Assembly: GCA_964521095.1 (NCBI GenBank)
Contig: CAZFPJ010000002.1
Coordinates: 85,108-149,107 of the forward strand
Source of the DNA: an uncultured Candidatus Saccharibacteria bacterium
GTDB lineage: Bacteria; Patescibacteriota; Saccharimonadia; Saccharimonadales; 2-12-FULL-41-12
Length of the DNA stretch: 64,000 nt
Direction: 5' to 3'
Part shown: in pieces, positions 2,449-61,821 of the stretch
Position numbering within the stretch: the first letter of the stretch is position 1
Layout: every line of letters starts with the position of its first letter
Program-made: the position numbers and the translations under genes
Notes under the pieces: model-generated
The model's database searches: none
What the model was told of the DNA's origin: nothing
What the model saw: only the letters and a program-made list of their open reading frames with translations

Positions 2449-2874
2449 TTAGTTAAGGCCAAATGAGCCACTTGGGTCAGTCGGCTCGCCATCATTATCT
2501 GAGCCTATTAGGCCATCTATGTCGCTATTGTCCGCCATGCCGTCATCGCTAGTCGAGCTAGTCTCGGCTTGTACAGTAGACGCTGTATCTTCTGGCGCTA
2601 CTGAGGGACTTTCTGCTGTCTCGGTGCTTGTAGGCTCATTACTACTTTCGACCTCCGTGCTAACGGGCGCTTCTTGTGTTGTTGGTTCTGGTGCCCCTGT
2701 TTCGTCTACTTGTGCCAGAGTTTGCTGTTCAACAACTTCAACCTCAGCCATAGTGTCTGCCATCTGAATATTCTCGGCCATCGGTGTAGCTTGCACTTGA
2801 TCTGCCTGAGTGTAGTCGGCAGAGAAGTTATCGTTTGAGTTTTGTGTTTGTTGCGGAGTCGAGTTGTCGTCCAT
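2449..2874 (-). CDS. hypothetical hyper-acidic protein (paralog B)
   Basis: 141-aa ORF in tandem with paralog A. A sigma70-like promoter and an AAAGGA ribosome-binding site lie upstream. The core at 2690-2830 is ~95% identical in DNA to 2248-2388. Confidence 0.6.
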   Translation of the reverse strand: MDDNSTPQQTQNSNDNFSADYTQADQVQATPMAENIQMADTMAEVEVVEQQTLAQVDETGAPEPTTQEAPVSTEVESSNEPTSTETAESPSVAPEDTASTVQAETSSTSDDGMADNSDIDGLIGSDNDGEPTDPSGSFGLN

Positions 2875-2909
2875 ATAAATCCTTTTTGTATTGATTGATG
2901 GCTAACTAT

Positions 2910-2938
2910 AATTATGTATCAATATCAATATTTGTCAA
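2910..2938 (-). promoter_or_regulatory. candidate sigma70-type promoter for the acidic-protein gene pair
   Basis: Minus strand: TTGACA (2938-2933), 17-nt spacer, ATAATT (2915-2910), ~35 nt upstream of the ATG at 2874. Confidence 0.35.
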
Positions 2939-2973
2939 AATAAATACCTCTTTTTAAGGACAGATATTTATTT

Positions 2974-2994
2974 TGGTAGCGGGGGCAGGACTCG
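2974..2994 (-). repeat. 21-nt exact copy of the tRNA-Met 3' end (third copy)
   Basis: TGGTAGCGGGGGCAGGACTCG is identical to 3343-3363. In tRNA sense it is CGAGTCCTGCCCCCGCTACCA. Confidence 0.9.
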
Positions 2995-3161
2995 GTCACC
3001 TCCGGCGACCCCGTCGCAACATCTTTCAAAACAAGTTTTGAAGAGTTGACTCACTTGCGAACTGCCACCGGCAGTTCGCACCTCCGACCTTCTTAGCGTC
3101 GCAGGATGAATTAAACTCAGCACCAAGTAAAAGACCCCATCTTTCGATGAGGTCCGTTACT
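2995..3161 (-). mobile_element. candidate non-coding module, family 2, bounded by tRNA-Met 3'-end copies (miniature integrative element and/or structured RNA)
   Basis: Homologous to 56057-56215 next to tRNA-Arg. Shared hairpins: GCGAACTGCC/GGCAGTTCGC at 3057-3079, TTCAAAA-CAAG-TTTTGAA at 3025-3042, and GCGAC-CCC-GTCGC at 3005-3017. No credible ORF. Confidence 0.5.
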
Positions 3162-3179
3162 TGGTAGCGGGGGCAGGAC
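3162..3179 (-). repeat. 18-nt exact copy of the tRNA-Met 3' end (second copy)
   Basis: TGGTAGCGGGGGCAGGAC is identical to 3343-3360. In tRNA sense it is followed by a hairpin plus T-run (3154->3129) homologous to the tRNA's own terminator. Confidence 0.9.
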
Positions 3180-3342
3180 AGCGGGCTTCGCCCTTTTTCG
3201 CTTGTTCGCCAGAAAAATACCTCGTGCTTTCCTGGCTTCTCTGCGCTACACCGAACCTGTGGTTCGCTTGCGCTCACGCATCAGGTTCTCGTTCTAGCTC
3301 CGACAAAGAAAAAAGACCCATCCAAAGATGAGTCATTTTTCT
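3180..3342 (-). mobile_element. candidate non-coding module, family 1 (includes the tRNA-Met terminator hairpin at 3309-3334)
   Basis: Roughly 65-70% identical by eye over ~110 nt to the module downstream of tRNA-Lys(UUU), 31670-31797. Shared blocks: CGAGAACC, GGTTCGG, GCAGAGAA, GAAAGCAC, GGTATTTT. A 9-bp stem (3228-3236 / 3208-3216) covaries with its counterpart. Confidence 0.5.
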
Positions 3343-3417
3343 TGGTAGCGGGGGCAGGACTCGAACCTGCGACCTTGTGGTTATGAGCCACACGAGCTGC
3401 CGCTGCTCTACCCCGCA
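3343..3417 (-). tRNA. tRNA-Met (anticodon CAU), initiator-like
   Basis: 75-nt cloverleaf folded by hand: anticodon loop CTCATAA, T-arm GCAGG-TTCGAGT-CCTGC, encoded CCA. It has a 1:72 U-U mismatch and two G-C pairs next to the anticodon loop, resembling fMet tRNA. Confidence 0.85.
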
Positions 3418-6470: not shown

Positions 6471-9400
6471 CTAGAACCCAAACACTTTCTGGAGAGAGTT
6501 AAGGATGATTGTTAGCACACTGTCTGAAGCCCGCCCAATTATGGCAGATTGAGGTTCGCCCTGTCCGACATTGCCAGATTTATCTTTTGATAGTGGCTGA
6601 ATGCTGTAGACCCGTGATGTTGGCAGGTCGGAGACAATAACTATGTGTTCTGTGCCAAGGGCTACATCTTCGCTGGTTTTGTTGTTAAATACAGTTGTGT
6701 TAGATCCTTCGCCATAGGCTACTTGGCTAGAGGATGGTTCGTCGGTCTTCCAGGAGACTACTACTTGTCCACGAGCTTCTGCACCGGTGCCACGGATAGA
6801 TGTTTCGATTTGTACTTCACTAATTTTTGGTGGCCGGGTGTCGAGGGCCGTTTTGAATTGTTGGCGGTCTGATTCGGCTAGGTTGCCACTGCCATCACGA
6901 CTTTGGGCAATCAAGAAATATTCGCTATTATCTTCTAGGCCTCGCAAGATGAGTTTGTGATCGGTGGTTAGTTGAGAATCTTGAACATCGATACCAGCCT
7001 GGCCAACCTTGCCATAAGTTACCGTTGAAGTAGCAGGTACATTTGTAGTCCAGCTGACTTCTTGGGTGCTGGTTGGCTCTCCTGCTATTGGTTGGAATCG
7101 TAGGTCTAGTATCTTTGGTCGAGCAGGGGTGGTGAAGGAGGAAACACTGCCATCGTAAGAGTTGTCTTCTTTATCGTAGGCGACTAGTTTGTAGAAGTAT
7201 TTTGAGCCGTCCTCTAGGCCATCTATGCTAACTTCATAGGTTGACTCATAAGGCGAGGTGTTGATAGATTTTATGCCTCCAAAGCTTTCGCCTTTGCCGT
7301 ATAACACATCAATGCGACTAGCGTTTTTGCTGGTAAATCTAATAGAAGCATTTGCGAGCCCAACCTTTGAGGTGGTGATTTCTTTGAGCGATGGGGCAGG
7401 GGCAGTTTGGAAAGTAAATTCTTGGCTAGTACCTGTGTTGCCATCTTCGTCTGTCCACTTGGCAACATAGTAGTAGGTAGTGCCTGCGCTTAGGTTGTTT
7501 AGGTCTATTTGGTGCGAACTTACTTGGTCAGACGAGGCGATCTCTGAAGAACTATATTTTCCGCTGGCTGTCCCAATAGCTATCTTTGAGTCACTTGATC
7601 GGTCGGTACTCCAGCTGATGGTCGCTTTGCGGGTAGTTATGTTGGATACTTTTGGATCTGCAACCAGGGTTGCTGGAGAGGTGAATTTACCAGTTGGTAT
7701 CTGGTTGACTGTGGTGCTGTTAGACCCACAGTTGTTAGTGCTGTCACAAGCCGTTACTCGATAGTAGTATCTTTGCTGACTTAGGCCGGCGTCTATGTAG
7801 GTAGTGCTAGAGCTACTACCTACAAACGAGAAGCTGACATTGTTTGTAGAGCGGTATACCTTATAGCTAGATATGCCAGCACCGGTATAAGTTGGTGCAT
7901 CCCAAGTTAGAGCTAGGCGCCAGTTGTTGGTGGCCTTAATAGACACATCGACGATATCGGTATTTAGGGGTATACCTGGAGACGGAGTGTTGGCCGTAAA
8001 GTTGACGGACGAATAGCTACTGTAGTTGATGTTGTTGGACTCGTCTTTTGCAACAACATAGAGCGTATTAAGTCCAGGCTGGGTTGCATATGGCCCCGCC
8101 CCTAAACTAGTCGTGCCTCCGCTAGTAAAGGTACAGTTATTGGCGGACGGAAGGATGTTAACGGTGTAGCAATAGGTTATATTGTTGGCGTTACCAACAA
8201 AAGTAGCCGGCTGGTTCCAACTGAAAGAGAACGAGTTGGTGGTGTTAGTAGTTGGATTTGCTGTAACATTTTGCGGTTCGCTTGGGGCTCCAGAAGTATT
8301 GATTTTTATAGCTGCAGTTACATAAGAAGCCGTCACATTACCTGCTTGGTCCCATGTTCTGAAGTAGACGGTATTTACTCCCTCAGTCAGATTAGCGTGA
8401 TCCGGTGTCGTAATAGTTTGGTATGACCCGTCATTAGACAGCAGGTCATTCATGTCACCCGTACCGCTATGACTATCTCCGTACCAAACAGTGTTGCCGA
8501 TTTTATATTGGAGGCCGGCAAGCCCAGAGTTGGGGTCATCAGGTGCTCCACCGCCAGATGTTGGCCAAGTTAGCGTGACATCTTTGGTGTTAATAAACCC
8601 AGATGGCGCAGTAATGTAACTAGGGTTAGTTGGCGGGGTGTTGTCGAAGCGGAAGTGGAACTGAGTTGTGCCAGTAGTTACATTGCCAGCATTATCCATA
8701 GCTTTGATAGTGAGGTAATACGGTGAGTTGCCGGTTGCTAGAGCTGTTTGTATAGTGCCAGCAGTTGCTGTGTCTATGCTGTTAGTCTCTATTAGGAATT
8801 GACATCGTCCGCCATTATCGGCTGGACTGTTCCCCAGAATACCTTTTGTAGTAACCGGGTCGGCGGAGCCATCGGTTCCAAGGTAGAGGCAGTAGCCCTT
8901 TATGCCAGAGTCTGTATCGGTGCCTGCTGTCCAGGAGAAATATGGTGAGCTACCATTGGTCCAAGCATTTTGCGCCAAGCTAGAACCGCCAGACGCCTTG
9001 AGTGCTGTTATGTTGCTAGCGTTTGTGGCTGGCTCTACTAAATCAGAAGTTGAGGCTAGGGTTACGCTGTTTAGGGTTACGCGTTGGTCGCCATTGCTCT
9101 TTAATACAGCCTGCCACTTTATGCCACTAAGGGTGACAGGGAAGGTACTCATATTTGCGTCGGCTACCGATATGGGGTTGGCCTCGGTCGTGTTATTGGA
9201 ATCTGCCCAACTGCTACCATTCCAGAATTTCCAGGTGACCCCGTTATCGGCAGACAGTCGGTAAGTGATGTCGCCACCGTTAGCGGTTTCGTTGGCTGTA
9301 AGGTTATCCCAGTGCCAGACGCCGTTGATACGAACTGGGTTGTTGAGGGTTATGGTTTGGGCAGTTGTGCTGTATGGCTTGCTGTTGAAGCTCGGCCTTG

Positions 9401-12400
9401 CGATGTCACTAATCCGTACCTCGTCTAACTGCCCCTGGAAATATCCGCGTGATTTTCCTTGTTCTCGTCCACCCCAGCTAGCACCGACAAACATGTCTCG
9501 TGAGCTGTCTGGTATAGTTAAAGATTTAGCTTGCGACCCAACTTCGTTGCCATCGATGTACAGTTTCATAGTTGAGCCATTGTAGGTGGCTGCTACATGG
9601 TGCCAGCTAGTGTCAAAACTAGAGGTAGAGGACTGCACGAATCCATTGTCGCCCCAAGACCAGATAGAGTTATCTTCTGAGTTGCCACTAAGCCCGGTAC
9701 CGGCGTATAGTTTGCCTTTATAAGGACTCATTGACCTAACGGCTTCGACATTGCCATCCCAACCGTTATTCATGCTGTCACCACCAATTTGTGTCCAGGT
9801 GGAGCCATCAAACTGCCAAAGCTCTCCATCGCCAGCCGTTGTCCCTAGTCCGGCGTATAGTTTGCCATTGTATACAGCGAGCGAGTGGATATACTCGTAG
9901 GTGCCTGCACCCCAACTATTGTTAACCGATCCTGTACCGCCCCCAATTAGTTCCCAGCTAGAGCCGTCATAAGTCCATATTTCGGCATCCCCTGTACTGT
10001 CGCCAAGTCCTACTGCTAGTTTGTCACCAAAGTTAGTCATAGATCGTACGGTTTCATAGCTTGTATTCCAGCTAGAGCTAACTCCATCGCCACCAACTTT
10101 ATTCCAGGCACTTCCATTCCACCGCCAGACTTCGGCTTCTGTGGCCGAAGTGCCGATGCCGGCATAAAGCTCGCCATTATAAATACCTAGCGACGAAACC
10201 ATCTCGAAGTTGGCTGCCCAGCCATTATTTATGTTGTCACCGCCAATTTTATCCCACTGACTGCCGTCCCAAACCCATACTTCGGCGTCATTGGCCGAAG
10301 TGCCGATGCCGGCATATAATTTACCAGCATAAGACGCCATAGAGTAGACTCCTTCATAGTTGGCTGCCCAGCCATCGTTCATGCTGTCACCACCAATTTG
10401 CGTCCAGGTACTGCCATCCCACTTCCATACTTCGGCGTCATTGGCCGAAATTCCTAGCCCAACATACAGCTCGCCCCCTAGGCTAGCCATAGAGGTTACG
10501 GCTTCGTAAGAAAAAGCCCCCCAGCTATTGTTGACTCCTTGTCCGCCTATCATTTCCCAGTTGCTACCGTTGAATCGCCATACCAGGGCATTGCCTGCCG
10601 TAGCATAGCCGGATCCCGCATATAAATAATCTCCGACCCATTGCATGACCTCTACGCTTTGGAGATTGTAATATCCCCAACTTTTATTTATCCCATTACC
10701 ACCTATCTGTGTCCAGGCGGAGCCATTCCATGTCCACATTCGTCCAGTGCCAGCAGAGTCATAAGTTCCTGCATATACCGTGGAGCCACTACTACTTAAT
10801 GTAAATATTGCATCGCCTTCTGCTGTGTTCCAGCTAGAGTTCGCTCCATCACCTCCAACTTTATGCCAGATACTACCGTCCCATCGCCAGACCTCACCAT
10901 CCCCATCGCTACTGCCGAGACCTACAAATATATCTGTTCCATTGCTGGTGATGGAACTGACATACTCGTAGGTTGTGTTGGCCCAGCTAGAGTTAAGCGT
11001 ATCACCACCAATTTGTGTCCAGGTGGGCGAGCCACCATTGCAACCCGAACAGCGATATACATCGCCATCGCCGGCGCTGTCACCAGTACCTGCATATATA
11101 TAAGTGCCGTCATAGAACAGGCTTCGAACCATTTCGTAGTTAGCAGAAAAACCACTGCCGTTATCGGCAACCTTTGTCCACTGAGTGCCGTTCCATCGCC
11201 AGACCTCGGCTTCGTTAGCGGTAACCCCCAAGCCAACATATAGATTAGTGCCATCATTGGTCATAGAGTAGGCATATTCGTAGTTTGTTCCCCATCCAAG
11301 ATTAATGCTGTCACCACCAATTTTGCTCCAGCTGGAGCCATCCCATTTCCACACCTCGGCGTCGTTAGCACTTGCTCCTAGTCCGGCGTATAGATTTCCC
11401 CCAAAATAATCTAGCGAGTAGACACCCTCGTGTGTGCCAATACCCCAACTCCCTGGCGTATTGGCGTCACCACCAATTTTGCTCCAGCTACTACCATTCC
11501 ATCGCCAGACCTCTGCATCTCCGGCACCAGTACCGAGCCCCACAAAAACATTTGTGCCATCAGTTGCCATGCTTAACACATATTCATGTTCGCCAGACCA
11601 GCTAGAATTTACGCCGTCGCCCCCAATTTTACTCCAGGTGGAGCCACTATATTTGTATACTTCCGCATCTTTTGTGGCTACGCCGGTTCCAGCGTATACA
11701 TCACTACCGACCGTCACAGATGAGGATACGGCGTTTTTGCCATTTAAGCCCCAGCTACCGTTAACATCGTCGCCAGCGGATTTAGTCCAGCCGGTAGCTG
11801 AATTATTGGCAAGCTCGTAAGTTAGCTTGCCTGTTTCATTGTCAAAATACATCTGGTAGTCGCCTTTATCTACTATTGCCTGGCGTTGTTCGTGCGAGCC
11901 AGCTGAGAAGTTGGAGCTAAATTTAGTCCAACCTTCAATTGTATTGTTTTGCGAAAGTGAAAGAGAGGGCGAATCGGGCACAGATATCTTTGAGGTAGTG
12001 CCATTTAGGCCTAGAGCATTATTTAAGTTACCTGTTTGCCAACTCTCGTCTTTAACCGTTCCATCATTGTTGTTGGTGGAGCTGTCATGAACAGTAGTTC
12101 CGCTCGATTCATCTAGGTGAAAGAGGGCTTTGGTGTTAGCATCGTCAGAATAGTTCTGGGCCTTCATGCGCACGCTGTTACCACTGATCTCTAAGCCATC
12201 ATCTAGGCTATATTGGCTAGGGGTAGAAAAGTCCCAGTTGTCAAAAAGGTCAGATGCAGCCAAGACTCTAGATAGAGAGGCAAATAACATTGATCCGATG
12301 ACAATCATGTATACGCCAAATACTGCATAATGCACTCGCTTGTGTTTGTCCCACTCGTGCCAGGTTTTGTATTTAGAGTATTTATTGGACAAATGCAGAT

Positions 12401-12608
12401 GTGGTTTGTGGGCCAAGTAGTGATGCCAGTATTTGTACCATCGCTTAAGCATTATAGAGGTCCTACGCAAGGAGTAACGAGAAATTTTACTACCGTATAT
12501 CGTTACCCAAACGGTAAATTGAATAGCCAAACGAATAAATATCGCAGAATATTTTAGCAATAATCCCCACGATTTTTGAGCTACTAGTAAAAATTTTTGT
12601 CTCGACAT
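6471..12608 (-). CDS. giant membrane-anchored surface protein (LamG/ConA-like domain with nested beta-propeller repeats, then FN3/Ig-like domains)
   Basis: 2045-aa ORF. It has a basic W/H/K/Y-rich N-tail and a TM segment at about aa 93-117. LamG_3-like sequence is split into aa ~160-270 and ~1000-1072. About 14 repeats of ~50 aa follow the pattern AEVWxWxGSxWxxIGGDxxNxxW. The C-terminal half contains multiple FN3-like modules. The true start may be an internal Met (aa 53). Confidence 0.85.
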   Translation of the reverse strand: MSRQKFLLVAQKSWGLLLKYSAIFIRLAIQFTVWVTIYGSKISRYSLRRTSIMLKRWYKYWHHYLAHKPHLHLSNKYSKYKTWHEWDKHKRVHYAVFGVYMIVIGSMLFASLSRVLAASDLFDNWDFSTPSQYSLDDGLEISGNSVRMKAQNYSDDANTKALFHLDESSGTTVHDSSTNNNDGTVKDESWQTGNLNNALGLNGTTSKISVPDSPSLSLSQNNTIEGWTKFSSNFSAGSHEQRQAIVDKGDYQMYFDNETGKLTYELANNSATGWTKSAGDDVNGSWGLNGKNAVSSSVTVGSDVYAGTGVATKDAEVYKYSGSTWSKIGGDGVNSSWSGEHEYVLSMATDGTNVFVGLGTGAGDAEVWRWNGSSWSKIGGDANTPGSWGIGTHEGVYSLDYFGGNLYAGLGASANDAEVWKWDGSSWSKIGGDSINLGWGTNYEYAYSMTNDGTNLYVGLGVTANEAEVWRWNGTQWTKVADNGSGFSANYEMVRSLFYDGTYIYAGTGDSAGDGDVYRCSGCNGGSPTWTQIGGDTLNSSWANTTYEYVSSITSNGTDIFVGLGSSDGDGEVWRWDGSIWHKVGGDGANSSWNTAEGDAIFTLSSSGSTVYAGTYDSAGTGRMWTWNGSAWTQIGGNGINKSWGYYNLQSVEVMQWVGDYLYAGSGYATAGNALVWRFNGSNWEMIGGQGVNNSWGAFSYEAVTSMASLGGELYVGLGISANDAEVWKWDGSTWTQIGGDSMNDGWAANYEGVYSMASYAGKLYAGIGTSANDAEVWVWDGSQWDKIGGDNINNGWAANFEMVSSLGIYNGELYAGIGTSATEAEVWRWNGSAWNKVGGDGVSSSWNTSYETVRSMTNFGDKLAVGLGDSTGDAEIWTYDGSSWELIGGGTGSVNNSWGAGTYEYIHSLAVYNGKLYAGLGTTAGDGELWQFDGSTWTQIGGDSMNNGWDGNVEAVRSMSPYKGKLYAGTGLSGNSEDNSIWSWGDNGFVQSSTSSFDTSWHHVAATYNGSTMKLYIDGNEVGSQAKSLTIPDSSRDMFVGASWGGREQGKSRGYFQGQLDEVRISDIARPSFNSKPYSTTAQTITLNNPVRINGVWHWDNLTANETANGGDITYRLSADNGVTWKFWNGSSWADSNNTTEANPISVADANMSTFPVTLSGIKWQAVLKSNGDQRVTLNSVTLASTSDLVEPATNASNITALKASGGSSLAQNAWTNGSSPYFSWTAGTDTDSGIKGYCLYLGTDGSADPVTTKGILGNSPADNGGRCQFLIETNSIDTATAGTIQTALATGNSPYYLTIKAMDNAGNVTTGTTQFHFRFDNTPPTNPSYITAPSGFINTKDVTLTWPTSGGGAPDDPNSGLAGLQYKIGNTVWYGDSHSGTGDMNDLLSNDGSYQTITTPDHANLTEGVNTVYFRTWDQAGNVTASYVTAAIKINTSGAPSEPQNVTANPTTNTTNSFSFSWNQPATFVGNANNITYCYTVNILPSANNCTFTSGGTTSLGAGPYATQPGLNTLYVVAKDESNNINYSSYSSVNFTANTPSPGIPLNTDIVDVSIKATNNWRLALTWDAPTYTGAGISSYKVYRSTNNVSFSFVGSSSSTTYIDAGLSQQRYYYRVTACDSTNNCGSNSTTVNQIPTGKFTSPATLVADPKVSNITTRKATISWSTDRSSDSKIAIGTASGKYSSSEIASSDQVSSHQIDLNNLSAGTTYYYVAKWTDEDGNTGTSQEFTFQTAPAPSLKEITTSKVGLANASIRFTSKNASRIDVLYGKGESFGGIKSINTSPYESTYEVSIDGLEDGSKYFYKLVAYDKEDNSYDGSVSSFTTPARPKILDLRFQPIAGEPTSTQEVSWTTNVPATSTVTYGKVGQAGIDVQDSQLTTDHKLILRGLEDNSEYFLIAQSRDGSGNLAESDRQQFKTALDTRPPKISEVQIETSIRGTGAEARGQVVVSWKTDEPSSSQVAYGEGSNTTVFNNKTSEDVALGTEHIVIVSDLPTSRVYSIQPLSKDKSGNVGQGEPQSAIIGRASDSVLTIILNSLQKVFGF
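9639..11795 (-). repeat. coding tandem repeats (~150-nt period, ~14 units) inside the giant gene
   Basis: Recurrent W-x-W-x-G-S-x-W..IGGD blades at aa 318, 368, 420, 470, 518, 574, 625, 677, 728, 778, 828, 878, 931 and 983. Some blades share DNA strings, e.g. GGCCGAAGTGCCGATGCCGGCATA at ~10143 and ~10293. Confidence 0.8.
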
Positions 12609-31627: not shown

Positions 31628-31629
31628 AT

Positions 31630-31797
31630 TTTAGTACCCCTCGCCCAAGAGGGGTTTTAAAATTGGAGAATTTATCCGAGAACCCGAGCCTGCGCTAGCA
31701 GGGGTTCGGCGTAGGCGAGCAGAGAAAAGAAAGCACCTTGGGTATTTTCTTTTCGAGTGAGCCGAAGGAGCGACCGAATGTAATGAGGGAAAGCGAT
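31630..31797 (+). mobile_element. candidate non-coding module, family 1 (includes terminator hairpin 31636-31658)
   Basis: Lies between two exact 20-nt copies of the tRNA-Lys 3' end. Homologous to 3180-3342. Contains a 9-bp stem GAAAAGAAA (31724-31732) / TTTCTTTTC (31746-31754) with loop GCACCTTGGGTAT. Confidence 0.5.
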
Positions 31798-31817
31798 GCC
31801 CCGGCGGGCCCTCCAAT
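31798..31817 (+). repeat. 20-nt exact copy of the tRNA-Lys(UUU) 3' end
   Basis: GCCCCGGCGGGCCCTCCAAT is identical to 31610-31629. Confidence 0.9.
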
Positions 31818-55512: not shown

Positions 55513-55938
55513 TTATAGGTAAGGTTTGATGTCTGGTATTACGCTTTCAAAAAACTCTCTATCTTTTGGGTGGGTCAAATAGCCTATAACTTTATCTATC
55601 TCAACCCAGATTGCCTCGGGGTTGTCGGGGTCTTCTGGTATAAGTTCTGTTTGCTTGGTTTTATATAAAAATAAGGTTATCTCTTTTATCTCGCTGTCGT
55701 CTAAAGGCCCTTCGTCCAAGGGTATTCTGTGTCTTTGATATGTTCCTAGCTCGCATAGCAAGGCTAGCTCTGTAAGGCCAGTCTCTTCTTGTATTTCACG
55801 CCTTGAAGCTTGTTGCAAATCTTCACCTGGGTCAACACCACCTTTGGGTAGTGACCATGAGCGACCATGCTGACTAACTACCACAATTTTATTGTCTGAC
55901 CCAATGATGACCCCGCCAGCTGTTTTTCTAATTTTCAT
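55513..55938 (-). CDS. NUDIX hydrolase
   Basis: Nudix box GGVDPGEDLQQASRREIQEETGL. Confidence 0.85.
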   Translation of the reverse strand: MKIRKTAGGVIIGSDNKIVVVSQHGRSWSLPKGGVDPGEDLQQASRREIQEETGLTELALLCELGTYQRHRIPLDEGPLDDSEIKEITLFLYKTKQTELIPEDPDNPEAIWVEIDKVIGYLTHPKDREFFESVIPDIKPYL

Positions 55939-56029
55939 TTAGCAATATATCCAAGCCAACAAGCGCAACCATACCGAGCAGTGCGTATGTCCAAAATTTC
56001 TTTTCTTTACTTGCAATCTTTTCACTCAT
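55928..56029 (-). CDS. candidate 33-aa single-TM protein, not in the ORF track
   Basis: ATG at 56029. Translation MSEKIASKEKKFWTYALLGMVALVGLDILLNEN. The stop overlaps the NUDIX start region. Confidence 0.25.
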   Translation of the reverse strand: MSEKIASKEKKFWTYALLGMVALVGLDILLNEN

Positions 56030-56034
56030 AACAT

Positions 56035-56056
56035 TGGTACCCCGGGAGGGACTCGA
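56035..56056 (-). repeat. 22-nt exact copy of the tRNA-Arg(UCU) 3' end
   Basis: TGGTACCCCGGGAGGGACTCGA is identical to 56216-56237. Confidence 0.9.
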
Positions 56057-56215
56057 CCCACCTTCGGCAGGCCCGAAACTTCGCTATTGAAAACAAGTTT
56101 TCATCGGAAGATTTCCTTGCAAACTGCCACTGGCAGTTCTCACCCCGACTTTACGGTCGGAGGTTCATCTTGCAATCAATATAAATTTACTGGCCAAAAG
56201 GCCACAGAATTTACA
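56057..56215 (-). mobile_element. candidate non-coding module, family 2
   Basis: Homologous to 2995-3161. Shares AACTGCC-ACT-GGCAGTT (56122-56138), TGAAAA-CAAG-TTTTCA (56088-56103), and a hairpin TTCGG-CAGGC-CCGAA (56063-56077) at the position of GCGAC-CCC-GTCGC. Confidence 0.5.
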
Positions 56216-56292
56216 TGGTACCCCGGGAGGGACTCGAACCCCCGACCTTGACGTTAGAACCGTCTTGCTCTAATCCACTGAGCTACCGGGGC
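56216..56292 (-). tRNA. tRNA-Arg (anticodon UCU)
   Basis: 77 nt: anticodon loop GTTCTAA, T-arm GGGGG-TTCGAGT-CCCTC, encoded CCA. Confidence 0.85.
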
Positions 56293-56311: not shown

Positions 56312-56386
56312 TGGTGCGGGCGGAGAGAATCGAACTCTCATCACTTGCTTGGAAGGCAGGTATATTAGCCATTATACGACGCCCGC
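56312..56386 (-). tRNA. tRNA-Gly (anticodon UCC)
   Basis: 75 nt: GCGGGCG acceptor, anticodon loop CTTCCAA, T-arm GAGAG-TTCGATT-CTCTC, encoded CCA. Confidence 0.85.
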
Positions 56387-56436
56387 AGGTTTCTTTAACA
56401 GAGGTAATTATAGCACGAATATTAAAAAGAGCTAAT

Positions 56437-57957
56437 CTAGATATCGTGGATTATTTCTATCTTGGCGCCAAGCGAGTTAAAGCGATCGGCCAAGTCCTCG
56501 TAGCCACGGTTGATAGAATAGACATTACGAAGCATCGAAGTGCCTTTAGCAGAGAGCATGCCTATCAGTAGTAGGACTGCTGGCCGGAGGGCAGGGGGCG
56601 AAACTATATCGGCAACACTCCATTTTGTAGGGCCGTCTACATAGGCTCGGTGTGGGTCTGCCAGGGTTACACTAGCACCAAGTTTTCGTAACTCGGTGTA
56701 GTATATAGCTCGCTCTTCATAAGTCCAGTCGTGTATGAGCGTCCTGCCTTTGGCTGTAGCCGCAATCGGCACAAAGTAGGGTAGGTTGTCTATATTGAGG
56801 CCAGGGAAGGGGCGAGCATATATTTTCTCGTCCAGAGCCTTTAGTTTGCCATTGTGTTTGTGGATCGTTATGTCTACGAGATCGGTATAATTGTTATTTG
56901 CCTTGTACGGTTTGCTTGTGTCTATCTGAAGACCCATTTTCTCGAGCTTTAACAGTTCTAGTTCTAAAAATTCTATGGGAGCACGACTTATCTTGATGCT
57001 AGAGTTCGTCGCAACAGCTGCAGCTATAAAAGTCATCGACTCGATGGGGTCTTCGCTAGGATAGTAGGTAATATTTTTCTTGATGTTTTTTACACCCCTT
57101 ACTGTAAGTGTGCTTGTACCTATTCCGTCAATTTTTACCCCTAGTTTTCTTAAAAAATAACAAAGATCCTGCACCATGTAGTTGGCGCTTGCCATTTTTA
57201 TAGTAACTTCGTTGTCTTGTCGAGCGGCCGCCATTAGTATGTTTTCTGTTGTAGTATCTCCCGACTCATACAAAACCACATGTTTTGGTTGTTTTTGTTT
57301 AACAGTAACTTGGTAAAACCCGGTTTTTGCCACAATATCGACTCCAAATTCTTCCAGCGCAAACAAATGTGGTTGCACCGTTCGTTTGCCTAGTTTGCAG
57401 CCTCCTGCATACGGAATCTTAAATTCAGGGAATATGTGCATAAGAGGGCCAAGCATCATGATGACACTACGGGTTTTTCGGGCTGCCACTTTGTCCATTT
57501 TTGACAGATCCAGTTCTTCGGGTGGTTTGATCTCTAGGTCATTATTGGCCATCCATCGCACCTTCACCCCAATGCTAACGAGCACCTCGATTAGGCGGTT
57601 AACCTCTTCGATTCGAGGCATTTTTTTGAGGCGCGTAGTTCCTTTGTTGAGTAGCGCGGCAAAAAGCAAACAAACTGCGGCATTTTTGGAAACTTTGGTT
57701 TCTATAGTTCCAGATAGCTCATGTCCACCTTCTATCCGCAAGCTAACCGCGTCGCTACCGAGGCTAATTATCGGCTTATTGAGAGCATCACTTATGCGTC
57801 CTAAAGTTTCTAGGCTCAGATTTTGCCCACCTTTTTCGATGCGGTTGATAGCGCTTTGGCTGGTACCAATGCGTTTAGCAAGCTCCGCTTGGGTCAGCCC
57901 TCGTTCTTGCCTGATCTGATAAATTAGATTGCCGATCTTTTGGTTTGCTACATTCAT
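56437..57957 (-). CDS. murA: XRE-family HTH domain fused to UDP-N-acetylglucosamine 1-carboxyvinyltransferase (MurA)
   Basis: aa 1-65 carry an XRE HTH (RGLTQAELAKRIGTSQSAINRIEKG). The rest has the MurA/EPSP-synthase fold (GGHELSGTIETKVSKNAA..LLFAALL) and a catalytic-loop Cys (YAGGCKLGKRTV). Confidence 0.85.
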   Translation of the reverse strand: MNVANQKIGNLIYQIRQERGLTQAELAKRIGTSQSAINRIEKGGQNLSLETLGRISDALNKPIISLGSDAVSLRIEGGHELSGTIETKVSKNAAVCLLFAALLNKGTTRLKKMPRIEEVNRLIEVLVSIGVKVRWMANNDLEIKPPEELDLSKMDKVAARKTRSVIMMLGPLMHIFPEFKIPYAGGCKLGKRTVQPHLFALEEFGVDIVAKTGFYQVTVKQKQPKHVVLYESGDTTTENILMAAARQDNEVTIKMASANYMVQDLCYFLRKLGVKIDGIGTSTLTVRGVKNIKKNITYYPSEDPIESMTFIAAAVATNSSIKISRAPIEFLELELLKLEKMGLQIDTSKPYKANNNYTDLVDITIHKHNGKLKALDEKIYARPFPGLNIDNLPYFVPIAATAKGRTLIHDWTYEERAIYYTELRKLGASVTLADPHRAYVDGPTKWSVADIVSPPALRPAVLLLIGMLSAKGTSMLRNVYSINRGYEDLADRFNSLGAKIEIIHDI

Positions 57958-61503: not shown

Positions 61504-61506
61504 AAA

Positions 61507-61671
61507 ATAGAACCGCCTTCCTGGCGGTTTTGTTTTTGGAACGCTTAAGGAAGAAAGCCAACTGCTTGGCTTTTGTGGGACTCGAACAGGCGGAGCGATG
61601 TCGAGCAATTCAGCGAGACCGCGAGCCGGGGTCGACAGCGAAAAGCAAAGCTTTTCGACTGGTGACTCGAA
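61507..61671 (+). mobile_element. candidate non-coding module (divergent; includes terminator 61511-61537)
   Basis: Lies between two exact 22-nt copies of the tRNA-Lys(CUU) 3' end. It contains an inverted copy of the T-loop region (GGGACTCGAAC, ~61578-61588) and the hairpin CGAAAAGC-AAA-GCTTTTCG. It shares the motif CAGnGAAAAGnAAAGC with family 1. Confidence 0.45.
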
Positions 61672-61693
61672 AGTCCCTCCTGGCCCTCCAAAA
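61672..61693 (+). repeat. 22-nt exact copy of the tRNA-Lys(CUU) 3' end
   Basis: AGTCCCTCCTGGCCCTCCAAAA is identical to 61485-61506. Confidence 0.9.
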
Positions 61694-61697
61694 TATG

Positions 61698-61724
61698 AAC
61701 TCCCCAAGAGGGAGTTTTTATTTT
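61698..61724 (+). terminator. intrinsic terminator after the repeat copy
   Basis: AACTCCC-CAAGA-GGGAGTT followed by TTTATTTT. An outer clamp pairs CTCCAAAATA with TATTTTGGAG. Confidence 0.65.
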
Positions 61725-61821
61725 GGAGCAGTGTGCTTTAGAACGCCCGACACGCCAAAAGGGCGTCGAGTCCCTCCCCTGATCGAATATGCCAGGATAG
61801 ACTCAAATCTAACTTGATATA

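Follow-up and report, generated by a model that had tools for sequence, protein, structure and literature searches.

The tRNA-Arg(UCU) locus and its module

The window, by which we mean the whole 64,000-nucleotide (nt) stretch of contig analysed here, comes from an uncultured Candidatus Saccharibacteria bacterium. On its minus strand, tRNA-Gly(UCC) and tRNA-Arg(UCU) form a short string, and behind the second tRNA lies the subject of this report, a module that ends in a copy of the tRNA-Arg 3´ end. The first-pass annotation of this DNA had drawn attention to a 22-nt duplication, and we found the 22-mer TGGTACCCCGGGAGGGACTCGA to be exact at both 56035-56056 and 56216-56237, with no match in 100 dinucleotide-preserving shuffles. 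Since tRNA-Arg occupies 56216-56292 on the minus strand, the second of these sites forms the 3´-terminal 22 nt of that gene itself. Apart from the two exact copies, only the paralogous tRNA-Arg(TCG) comes near, its 3´ end differing at 2 positions. The two copies are 159 nt apart, and the distance from the end of tRNA-Arg to the end of the downstream copy is 181 nt. Read along the minus strand, the string and the module consist of the following parts.

56407-56415, minus strand: extended -10-like promoter element TGCTATAAT, 5´ of tRNA-Gly, found by sequence inspection
56312-56386, minus strand: tRNA-Gly(UCC), first in the string (ARAGORN; Rfam tRNA, 60.2 bits)
56216-56292, minus strand: tRNA-Arg(UCU), the intact host (ARAGORN; Rfam tRNA, 59.8 bits); the original of the 22-mer is 56216-56237
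56180-56215, minus strand: hairpin directly 3´ of the CCA, UGUAAAUUCUGUGGCC-UUUU-GGCCAGUAAAUUUAUA (minimum-free-energy fold); the first fold-back turn
56155-56169, minus strand: antisense (aS) remnant GAUGAACCUCCGACC, a decayed reverse complement of tRNA-Arg ~46-60 (a perfect one would read GACUCGAACCCCCGACC)
56150-56154, minus strand: GUAAA loop of hairpin P1, which pairs the aS remnant with X (from the fold); the second fold-back turn
56142-56149, minus strand: X, sense copy GUCGGGGU (in the tRNA, GUCGGGGGU) of the variable loop, the T-stem 5´ strand and T54
56057-56141, minus strand: the whole insert, 85 nt
56120-56141, minus strand: insert part 1, junction GAGAAC and hairpin P2 (GAACUGCC-AGU-GGCAGUUU; consensus structure)
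56074-56119, minus strand: insert part 2, long hairpin P3 (CAAGGAAAUCUUCCGAUGAAAAC-UU-GUUUUCAAUAGCGAAGUUUCG; covariation)
56057-56073, minus strand: insert part 3, hairpin P4 (GGCCUGC-CGAAG-GUGGG; covariation), with a conserved G.U pair
56035-56056, minus strand: D, exact copy of tRNA-Arg 55-76 (UCGAGUCCCUCCCGGGGUACCA); predicted 3´ end of a module RNA

The intact tRNA-Arg is thus followed by a hairpin, a decayed antisense copy of the tRNA 3´ half, a loop, a sense copy of positions ~47-54, the insert, and positions 55-76. Since the flanks on both sides copy the local tRNA, the conserved piece is an insert inside a partial copy: its 85 nt lie within the T-loop of a partial tRNA-Arg(UCU), between T54 and T55/C56. 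The simple direct repeat first proposed is real as far as the 22 nt go, but the arrangement as a whole is a fold-back, with the antisense remnant at 56155-56169 and the insert in the T-loop. Near-identity had also been claimed to extend beyond the 22 nt, and the GGTGGG that precedes TCGAGTCCC had been taken for a retained T-stem strand. Neither point was borne out. Identity to the tRNA begins only at T55/C56, GGTGGG belongs to the 3´ strand of hairpin P4 (CCUGC/GUGGG), and it is at 56142-56149, 85 nt further upstream, that the T-stem 5´ strand is really copied. A T-arm or minihelix made of the copy and its upstream bases was rejected on the same ground, the preceding bases being P4, which shows no covariation with the tRNA T-stem.

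Homologous modules, whose collection is described below, share this anatomy. X follows the local tRNA at every locus of a 64-module alignment (A1), reading GGTCGCAGG at tRNA-Met, ATTCGTAGG at tRNA-Gln and GGTCGTGGG at tRNA-His. Past the post-tRNA hairpin, there is a collinear, decayed reverse complement of the tRNA 3´ half, running from position 76 back to ~44, and at other loci the 3´ arm of the hairpin runs on into this antisense copy. Window tRNAs without modules do not have the '...TTGG' continuation of their terminator hairpins. At 33 loci with the same arrangement (type A, below), D is 93% identical to the tRNA beside it, and perfectly so in 22 cases; X reaches 86% and aS 64.5%, as against 46% when aS is compared with non-cognate tRNAs. 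In the Arg module itself, the aS remnant matches the reverse complement of tRNA-Arg at 11 of 12 positions in a local alignment, and the antisense stretch nearer the 5´ end (56170-56179) is too decayed to recognise. An acceptor-like stem of antisense and copy, which could have served as an RNase P substrate, was dismissed as a general feature; in the Arg module this pairing has decayed away.

Four of the nine tRNA genes in the window carry end copies, tRNA-Met carrying two, and in a sample of other loci, which was selected for carrying the element, the corresponding share is ~40%. The first-pass annotation had called the 159-nt Arg interval a family-2 module, homologous to one behind tRNA-Met (3343-3417), a different tRNA with its own duplicated end, and both statements hold: the Arg interval and the second tRNA-Met module match over 67 nt at 77.6% identity (blastn, E=1.6e-8), and both align over their full length to our family-2 covariance model, of whose training set both are members. 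The other modules differ in family. Behind tRNA-Met, on the minus strand at 2974-3342, two modules with different insert families stand in tandem, with end copies of 18 nt for family 1 (3162-3179) and 21 nt for family 2 (2974-2994), each with its own CCA-pairing hairpin and antisense remnant. tRNA-Lys(UUU) is followed on the plus strand by a family-1 module (31628-31815) with an 18-nt end copy at 31798-31815. At tRNA-Lys(CUU), also on the plus strand (61504-61790), the insert belongs to a third family and the end copy lies at 61673-61690, beyond which there is a further fragment with GTCGAGTCCCTCC (~61766-61778). T-run terminators follow both Lys modules.

No such terminator follows the Arg copy, as the first-pass annotation had remarked: a scan of the minus strand detected nothing terminator-like from the end of tRNA-Arg as far as the NUDIX gene, and the hairpin at 56180-56215, which is weakly terminator-like, failed that scan. 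The two genes reported to lie downstream on the same strand are present.

55928-56029, minus strand: 33-amino acid (aa) open reading frame (ORF) with a hydrophobic stretch (ORF list); downstream context, outside the element
55513-55938, minus strand: NUDIX hydrolase gene (Pfam PF00293, E=1.8e-19); downstream context

The ORF starts 6 nt past the end of D and overlaps the NUDIX start by 11 nt. Because no terminator-like site separates the copy from these genes, read-through from the tRNAs into both is plausible on sequence grounds. In the relative L003, which has no module here, tRNA-Arg, an ORF, NUDIX and tRNA-His form one same-strand string, and the linkage of tRNA-Arg to NUDIX is therefore independent of the module. 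The ORF in the corresponding position of L003 encodes 105 aa and is unrelated to the 33-aa ORF. On the other side of the string, the minus-strand gene at 56437-57957 encodes MurA (EPSP_synthase fold) with an N-terminal XRE-type helix-turn-helix domain, and this XRE-MurA fusion is kept in the best-scoring 120 homologues listed (77-100% identity). Judged by its MurA homologues, the organism belongs to Saccharimonadales. Elsewhere on the minus strand, 6471-12608 encodes a presumed giant surface protein of 2045 aa, in which Laminin_G_3, fibronectin type III and purple-acid-phosphatase N-terminal domains were recognised.

A folded insert that moves between tRNA genes

A search pattern built on the conserved hairpin of the module was run over a collection of reference genomes and found 79 loci, ~65 of them in Saccharibacteria or other Patescibacteria and two in Akkermansia, along with a few chance matches in high-GC genomes. 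A tRNA lies shortly upstream on the same strand in 54 of 83 core matches, and the hosts comprise 12 types (Lys, Leu, Met, Gln, Ser, Val, Pro, Arg, Ala, Glu, Thr and His). At 33 loci there is an exact copy of the local tRNA 3´ end at a fixed distance past the core, nearly always of the last 21-22 nt, and at most of the remaining loci the end copy is truncated or has a few mismatches. Of 117 tRNAs examined, 50 have a downstream end copy, with a spacing that is always at least 124 nt and nearly always 124-221 nt; none of the 117 shows a duplicated tRNA end without an insert.

The architecture also exists outside the Candidate Phyla Radiation. Two Akkermansia metagenome-assembled genomes (L026, 6049-6548, and L067) have it at tRNA-Leu(CAA), with the P2 hairpin conserved and the remainder of the insert GC-rich and different. 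The tRNA gene encodes no CCA there, and the end copy extends to the last base of that gene. The terminator hairpin is present in two copies that differ by a single 1-nt indel. A weaker, possibly related case stands behind tRNA-Arg(UCU) in an Oscillospiraceae metagenome-assembled genome (L061).

RNAalifold, applied to 58 sequences, gave three hairpins closed by the copied T-stem, with 37 pairs, 25 of which are changed on both sides. On the fixed structure, 96.5% of cells are paired, as against 79.1% in shuffles (none of 500 reaches the observed value) and 28-46% when partners are slid. P3 has changes on both sides in all 18 of its pairs, with 96.4% of cells paired. In P4, this holds for 4 of 7 pairs, the variants among the 58 homologues including GUCGC/GUGAC, CUCGC/GUGAG and CCCGC/GUGGG, and a G.U pair is kept in 52 of the 58. 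P2 was held invariant by the seed pattern; in the diverged matches later reached with a covariance model it covaries as well (GUGCC/GGCAC, ACAUGCC/GGCAUGU). Judged by this covariation, the insert is a structured nucleic acid under selection. Rfam was searched across the window at gathering score and, with the looser limit of E<=10, in the module regions behind the Arg, Lys and Met tRNAs. Only tRNAs and chance matches came back, and in neither scope was there a match to RtT, a ribozyme, an intron or Y-RNA.

The 72 strong matches divide into 35 of type A, the arrangement seen at tRNA-Arg, 7 tandem, 8 of a mirror-image type B, 8 at contig edges, and 14 other or orphan copies. At type-B loci (L048, L051, L054, L066, L070, L080 and L086), the region upstream of the tRNA and tRNA positions 1-54 are duplicated and carry the insert, after which come a short palindrome (for example TCGAATCC-TA-TTCGAACCCC) and the intact tRNA. 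Both types have a short flank followed by its own inverted copy. The nearest relative of the window insert, 94% identical, is of this mirror-image kind: at tRNA-Gln in L051, the order is duplicated upstream DNA with tRNA-Gln 1-54, insert, 55-62, a short inverted piece, and intact tRNA. A three-way alignment shows that the differences between the two inserts include an apparent compensatory pair. An insert so similar in a mirror-image setting at another tRNA indicates that it is the insert, not the flanks, that is mobile, and that the flanks would be made locally. More generally, in only 10 of 39 cases does an insert share its tRNA species with the insert closest to it in sequence.

The first-pass annotation had proposed comparing the tRNA-Arg junction across relatives. 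No module is present at tRNA-Arg(UCU) in L003, L005 and L006, three relatives whose MurA is 83-89% identical; other species do have one behind this tRNA, in differing gene contexts.

Repeated units are a further source of variation. In the L008 tandem, the end copy, the terminator and the start of the antisense arm are repeated exactly over 95 nt before the repeat is truncated, successive units of the L052 tandem hold two different insert families, and L017 has three units around tRNA-Val (2757-3346). The arrays appear to grow and shrink via recombination between end copies. Same-species Logan contigs with identical MurA or NUDIX proteins (L088-L092) stop at tRNA-Gly, tRNA-Arg or the module, and the module repeats seem to break assemblies at tRNA loci. 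For annotation, this means that modules apparently interrupt short-read assemblies at tRNA genes, and that repeated tRNA ends can be mistaken for integration sites. Two loci show further rearrangement. At L070, the pseudo-copy contains another insertion, located in the anticodon region. In L079 (~1490-1700), a tRNA 5´ fragment (GGGGCGATAGCTCAGTTGGCTAGAGCACCTGCTTGG) is joined directly to antisense segment, X, insert and D, and no intact tRNA was called at the locus, which could represent either a deletion product mediated by a palindrome or a tRNA-Val that has been disrupted.

What the module may be and how it may spread

The closest known system is that of the 178-bp repeats of E. coli tyrT and their rtT (RttR) RNA (Rfam RF00391), which by our reading of the sequence share the same design, and the feature described here is a divergent Saccharibacteria member of this RtT-like kind, without an Rfam model. 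We think it rather probable that the module is a 'passenger' RNA element of the tRNA operon in the manner of RtT. It would be transcribed together with tRNA-Gly and tRNA-Arg, the hairpin after tRNA-Arg being weak, from the TGCTATAAT element, where the transcript presumably begins, although a consensus scan upstream of tRNA-Gly found no full -35/-10 pair at this element. The 5´ end of the module RNA could then be released by maturation of the tRNA-Arg 3´ end, and its 3´ end trimmed to the tRNA-like ...ACCA of the copy, where it would be protected and repairable like a tRNA end. By analogy with the 171-nt rtT RNA of E. coli, a product of ~181 nt would be expected, with the insert closed into a multi-helix junction by the copied T-stem strands or by the antisense remnant. 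We favour an RNA of the sense strand because of the conserved P4 G.U pair and the constant co-orientation with the tRNA. The near-perfect conservation of D is suggestive of function, and the antisense arm may decay faster because a long perfect palindrome is selected against.

In the same model, the insert would be the mobile unit and the tRNA-derived flanks would be built locally at each insertion. The zig-zag order of the segments, together with the mirror-image type-B loci, points to template switching or fold-back copying, with turns at the loop of the terminator hairpin and at the palindromic T-loop TTCGAA. The insert could be acquired as a templated insertion through T-arm microhomology, selection would retain only products with one intact tRNA, and an enzyme encoded by the element is apparently not involved.

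Several points weigh against this model or limit it. RF00391 (gathering score, 45 bits) has no match in the window, and relaxing the limit to E<=10 in the regions behind the Arg, Lys and Met tRNAs brought none to light; the same model scores 133-137 bits on E. coli. In the other direction, the family-2 model finds E. coli RtT weakly (11 bits, rough E 0.0065), via a GGUGAGAAC-hairpin-GUUCG motif. The likeness to RtT is one of design, which does not establish homology or common descent. Strand preference is not seen when the T-stem and the one conserved P4 G.U are excluded, G.U and A.C then numbering 19 and 19. The closing helix may be either P1 (aS:X) or a pseudo T-stem (X:D), both of which are complementary by construction. 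RNA processing in this organism is modelled on that of E. coli, and template switching is our reading of the junction order, with no intermediate observed. Finally, D could be so well conserved simply for being young, while aS is worn down by selection against a perfect palindrome, and not on account of a function.

A wider proposal, which we put forward tentatively and consider less likely than not, is that RtT-like elements, the E. coli tyrT repeats included, form one widespread class of structured RNAs that propagate without an enzyme of their own in the T-loops of spare tRNA fragments. If this were true, the class would spread from tRNA to tRNA, and from type A to type B or the reverse, by exploiting template switching where there is a TTCGAA or a terminator hairpin, and each jump would build a new tRNA-derived cradle, which in type A ends in a tRNA-like CCA.

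Among other explanations, RNA-mediated mobility fares best, although we consider it unlikely. Here a reverse transcriptase would copy either the module RNA or a tRNA, starting at the CCA, switch at the T-loop and snap back at hairpins, and the tRNA-identical end would be the analogue of a retroviral primer-binding-site copy or of tRNA capture by the Mauriceville retroplasmid. The zig-zag fold-back order is typical of snap-back synthesis, a conserved insert structure is what one would expect of an RNA transposition intermediate, and the end copy has a length fixed for each family: 18 nt in family 1, ~19 in E. coli RtT and 21-22 in family 2. In retrovirus biology, reverse transcriptase copies 18 nt of the tRNA 3´ end before it meets m1A58. 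Yet the length follows the insert family and not the tRNA, and tRNA-Met, which has both an 18-nt and a 21-nt copy, argues against a stop at a tRNA modification. Moreover, the scan of 60 window ORFs found housekeeping functions only; integrase, transposase, TnpB, reverse transcriptase and Cas were absent from this set. We also count against this explanation that E. coli K-12 has RtT repeats and, to our knowledge, no known reverse transcriptase.

Regulation in cis seems less likely still; on this view the module would adjust how far transcription from the tRNAs terminates or continues into the small ORF, NUDIX and tRNA-His, or would control tRNA 3´ maturation via antisense pairing. The lack of a detected terminator between tRNA-Arg and NUDIX would suit it, as would the antisense segment, which can pair with the tRNA 3´ half or with X and D, and Rfam classes RtT as cis-regulatory. 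Homologous inserts, however, occur in unrelated downstream contexts, many with their own terminator or another module next; type-B copies sit upstream of tRNAs; and NUDIX belongs to the same tRNA string in the module-free L003.

The modules might, with low probability, be neutral debris, replication-error scars of tRNA-gene rearrangement with neither function nor dedicated mobility. Such scars would explain an antisense part that decays (64.5% identity), the existence of orphan and truncated copies, and a presence at a given tRNA that varies between relatives. They would not explain why the helices of the insert have been kept through many compensatory changes in ~60 species, nor why the same insert is found at 12 tRNA types and no duplication without it among the 117 tRNAs.

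We give little credence to a miniature IS200/IS605 element or a stand-alone guide RNA, in which the 21-22 nt would be the guide and the T-loop bases the target-adjacent motif. The resemblance lies in a structured scaffold of ~85-150 nt followed by ~20 nt identical to a genomic target, in subterminal hairpins, and in the lack of inverted terminal repeats evident by eye. An IS200/IS605 element or a TnpB omega-RNA was rejected in a search limited to the window, TnpA, TnpB and IscB not being found in the ORFs scanned, and an IS200/IS605 insertion, which makes no duplication, would split the tRNA, whereas the flanks here are duplicated, partly inverted tRNA copies. Type-B copies lack the supposed guide, and the Rfam RtT consensus pairs the equivalent segment in its closing stem. 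Nor did the insert match phage or plasmid collections by blastn, and in viral contigs the core hairpin pattern had a single chance match, in high-GC coding DNA.

The duplication of a block from T-loop to CCA at integration sites in tRNA genes is established knowledge, and it is what an attL/attR scar would show if a tRNA-integrating element with a T-loop class tyrosine integrase had been deleted down to ~160 nt; we nevertheless find this scarcely credible, as the unit size is constant (spacing mostly 160-177 nt), the 12 tRNAs have their own end sequences, an antisense piece, X and a mirror-image type B are present, no recombinase was found in the 60 ORFs, and the repeats lie 159 nt apart rather than kilobases.

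A repeat owned by the element, as the attP of such an integrating element is, does not fit one insert family at 12 tRNA types, each with its own end sequence either.

Two further candidates were discarded. The ends of the insert (GAGAACUGCC... and ...CGAAGGUGGG) are by inspection not inverted repeats, and the flanks are T-loop halves instead of a duplicated target, contrary to a miniature inverted-repeat transposable element. A self-splicing or archaeal-type tRNA intron is excluded in that an intact tRNA adjoins the interrupted partial copy; at no locus do a complete 5´ and a complete 3´ tRNA part surround the insert, and the Rfam intron families gave no match.

Comparison with RtT and other known systems

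We found no description of this architecture in the literature on tRNA 3´-end duplications, T-loop target duplications, Saccharibacteria tRNA repeats or RtT. Parts of it recur in several known systems. The att sites of genomic islands and prophages of the T-loop class likewise combine an intact tRNA with a distant direct repeat from T-loop to CCA, but the repeats of the module are ~160 nt and not kilobases apart, no integrase was found in the window ORFs scanned, the same cargo is present at many tRNAs, each having a repeat of its own, and an extra antisense copy and a mirror-image form exist. Primer-binding sites of retroviruses and long terminal repeat (LTR) elements, and the Neurospora Mauriceville retroplasmid, also have a short tRNA 3´-end copy of fixed length on a mobile sequence, its identity depending on the tRNA used. 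In the module, by contrast, the copy is in sense and at the 3´ end of the element, its length is set by the element family, and no reverse transcriptase was found. TnpB/IscB omega-RNAs and IS200/IS605 miniatures share with it a structured scaffold followed by ~20 nt of genomic identity, and subterminal hairpins, but no nuclease or transposase gene was found in the window ORFs scanned, the tRNA flanks of the module are duplicated and partly inverted, and type B has no 'guide'. Template-switch and fold-back triplications (duplication-inverted triplication-duplication, DUP-TRP/INV-DUP, and quasi-palindromes) show the same forward-inverted-forward order, with turns at hairpins or short palindromes; unlike these, the module is recurrent and site-specific (T-loop, terminator), and always comes with the same conserved structured insert.

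RtT is closer than any of these. The tyrT sequence and RtT have been part of the E. coli literature since the late 1970s, and the tyrT distal 178-bp repeats and the rtT RNA are reportedly to be found in the work of Egan and Landy in 1978 and of Bösl and Kersten in 1991, the latter cited in PMC4986893 and PMC3318445. At the E. coli tyrT locus, end copies follow one another at intervals of 175 and then 178 nt, and the 17-mer that they share returns with a period of 178 nt. By our reading, each unit runs from an antisense T-arm piece through a sense T-stem/T-loop piece to an insert: GGGGAAGGAUGAGAAGCUUCGA agrees with the tRNA-Tyr T-arm, taken in reverse complement, at 19 of 22 positions, and is followed by AAGGUUCG, the insert and an end copy of about the last 19 nt of tRNA-Tyr. 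It is with the CCA of this copy that the annotated rttR RNA ends. In the Rfam consensus, the segment equivalent to the end copy is base-paired in the closing stem. Like the Arg module, which begins at the base after the CCA, RtT lies directly behind a tRNA, on the same strand and in the same transcript, and 35 of the 72 homologues likewise adjoin a tRNA. Unit lengths are similar, ~178 nt in E. coli RtT and 181 nt in the Arg module, and both kinds form tandem arrays.

The junction motif (A/G)UGAGAA is common to RtT and the family-2 insert, and both family-1 modules of the window share AGCG.AGAGA and AAGGGCGAAGC with E. coli RtT, as judged by eye. The motif GGUGAGAAC-hairpin-GUUCG, through which the family-2 model reaches RtT, looks like an altered reverse-complement T-loop; in L052, one unit has GGGATTCGAAC where the next has GGGATGAGAAC. 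The two kinds also differ. The end copy including CCA measures 18-19 nt in E. coli RtT and 21-22 nt in family 2, the Saccharibacteria insert enters the T-loop 3-4 nt earlier, and the sequence and fold of the insert differ, with three hairpins in Saccharibacteria. The hosts are Saccharibacteria here and Gammaproteobacteria for RtT. In Actinobacillus, RtT-family RNAs are expressed upstream of tRNA-Asn and tRNA-Lys (PMC4986893), a position that fits our type B.

The function of the E. coli rtT RNA is unknown (10.1101/2024.07.17.603846), and RtT has spent years in Rfam with neither a function nor an origin assigned. To this kind of element our data add a large new family from a phylum of ultra-small genomes, with ~60 species, strong covariation and no Rfam model. 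The results suggest a general anatomy, in which a structured insert is nested in a T-loop and surrounded by fold-back copies of the host tRNA. With this anatomy in hand, it becomes testable what the folded RNA binds, and how an 85-nt sequence without an enzyme can target tRNA genes and leave them intact.

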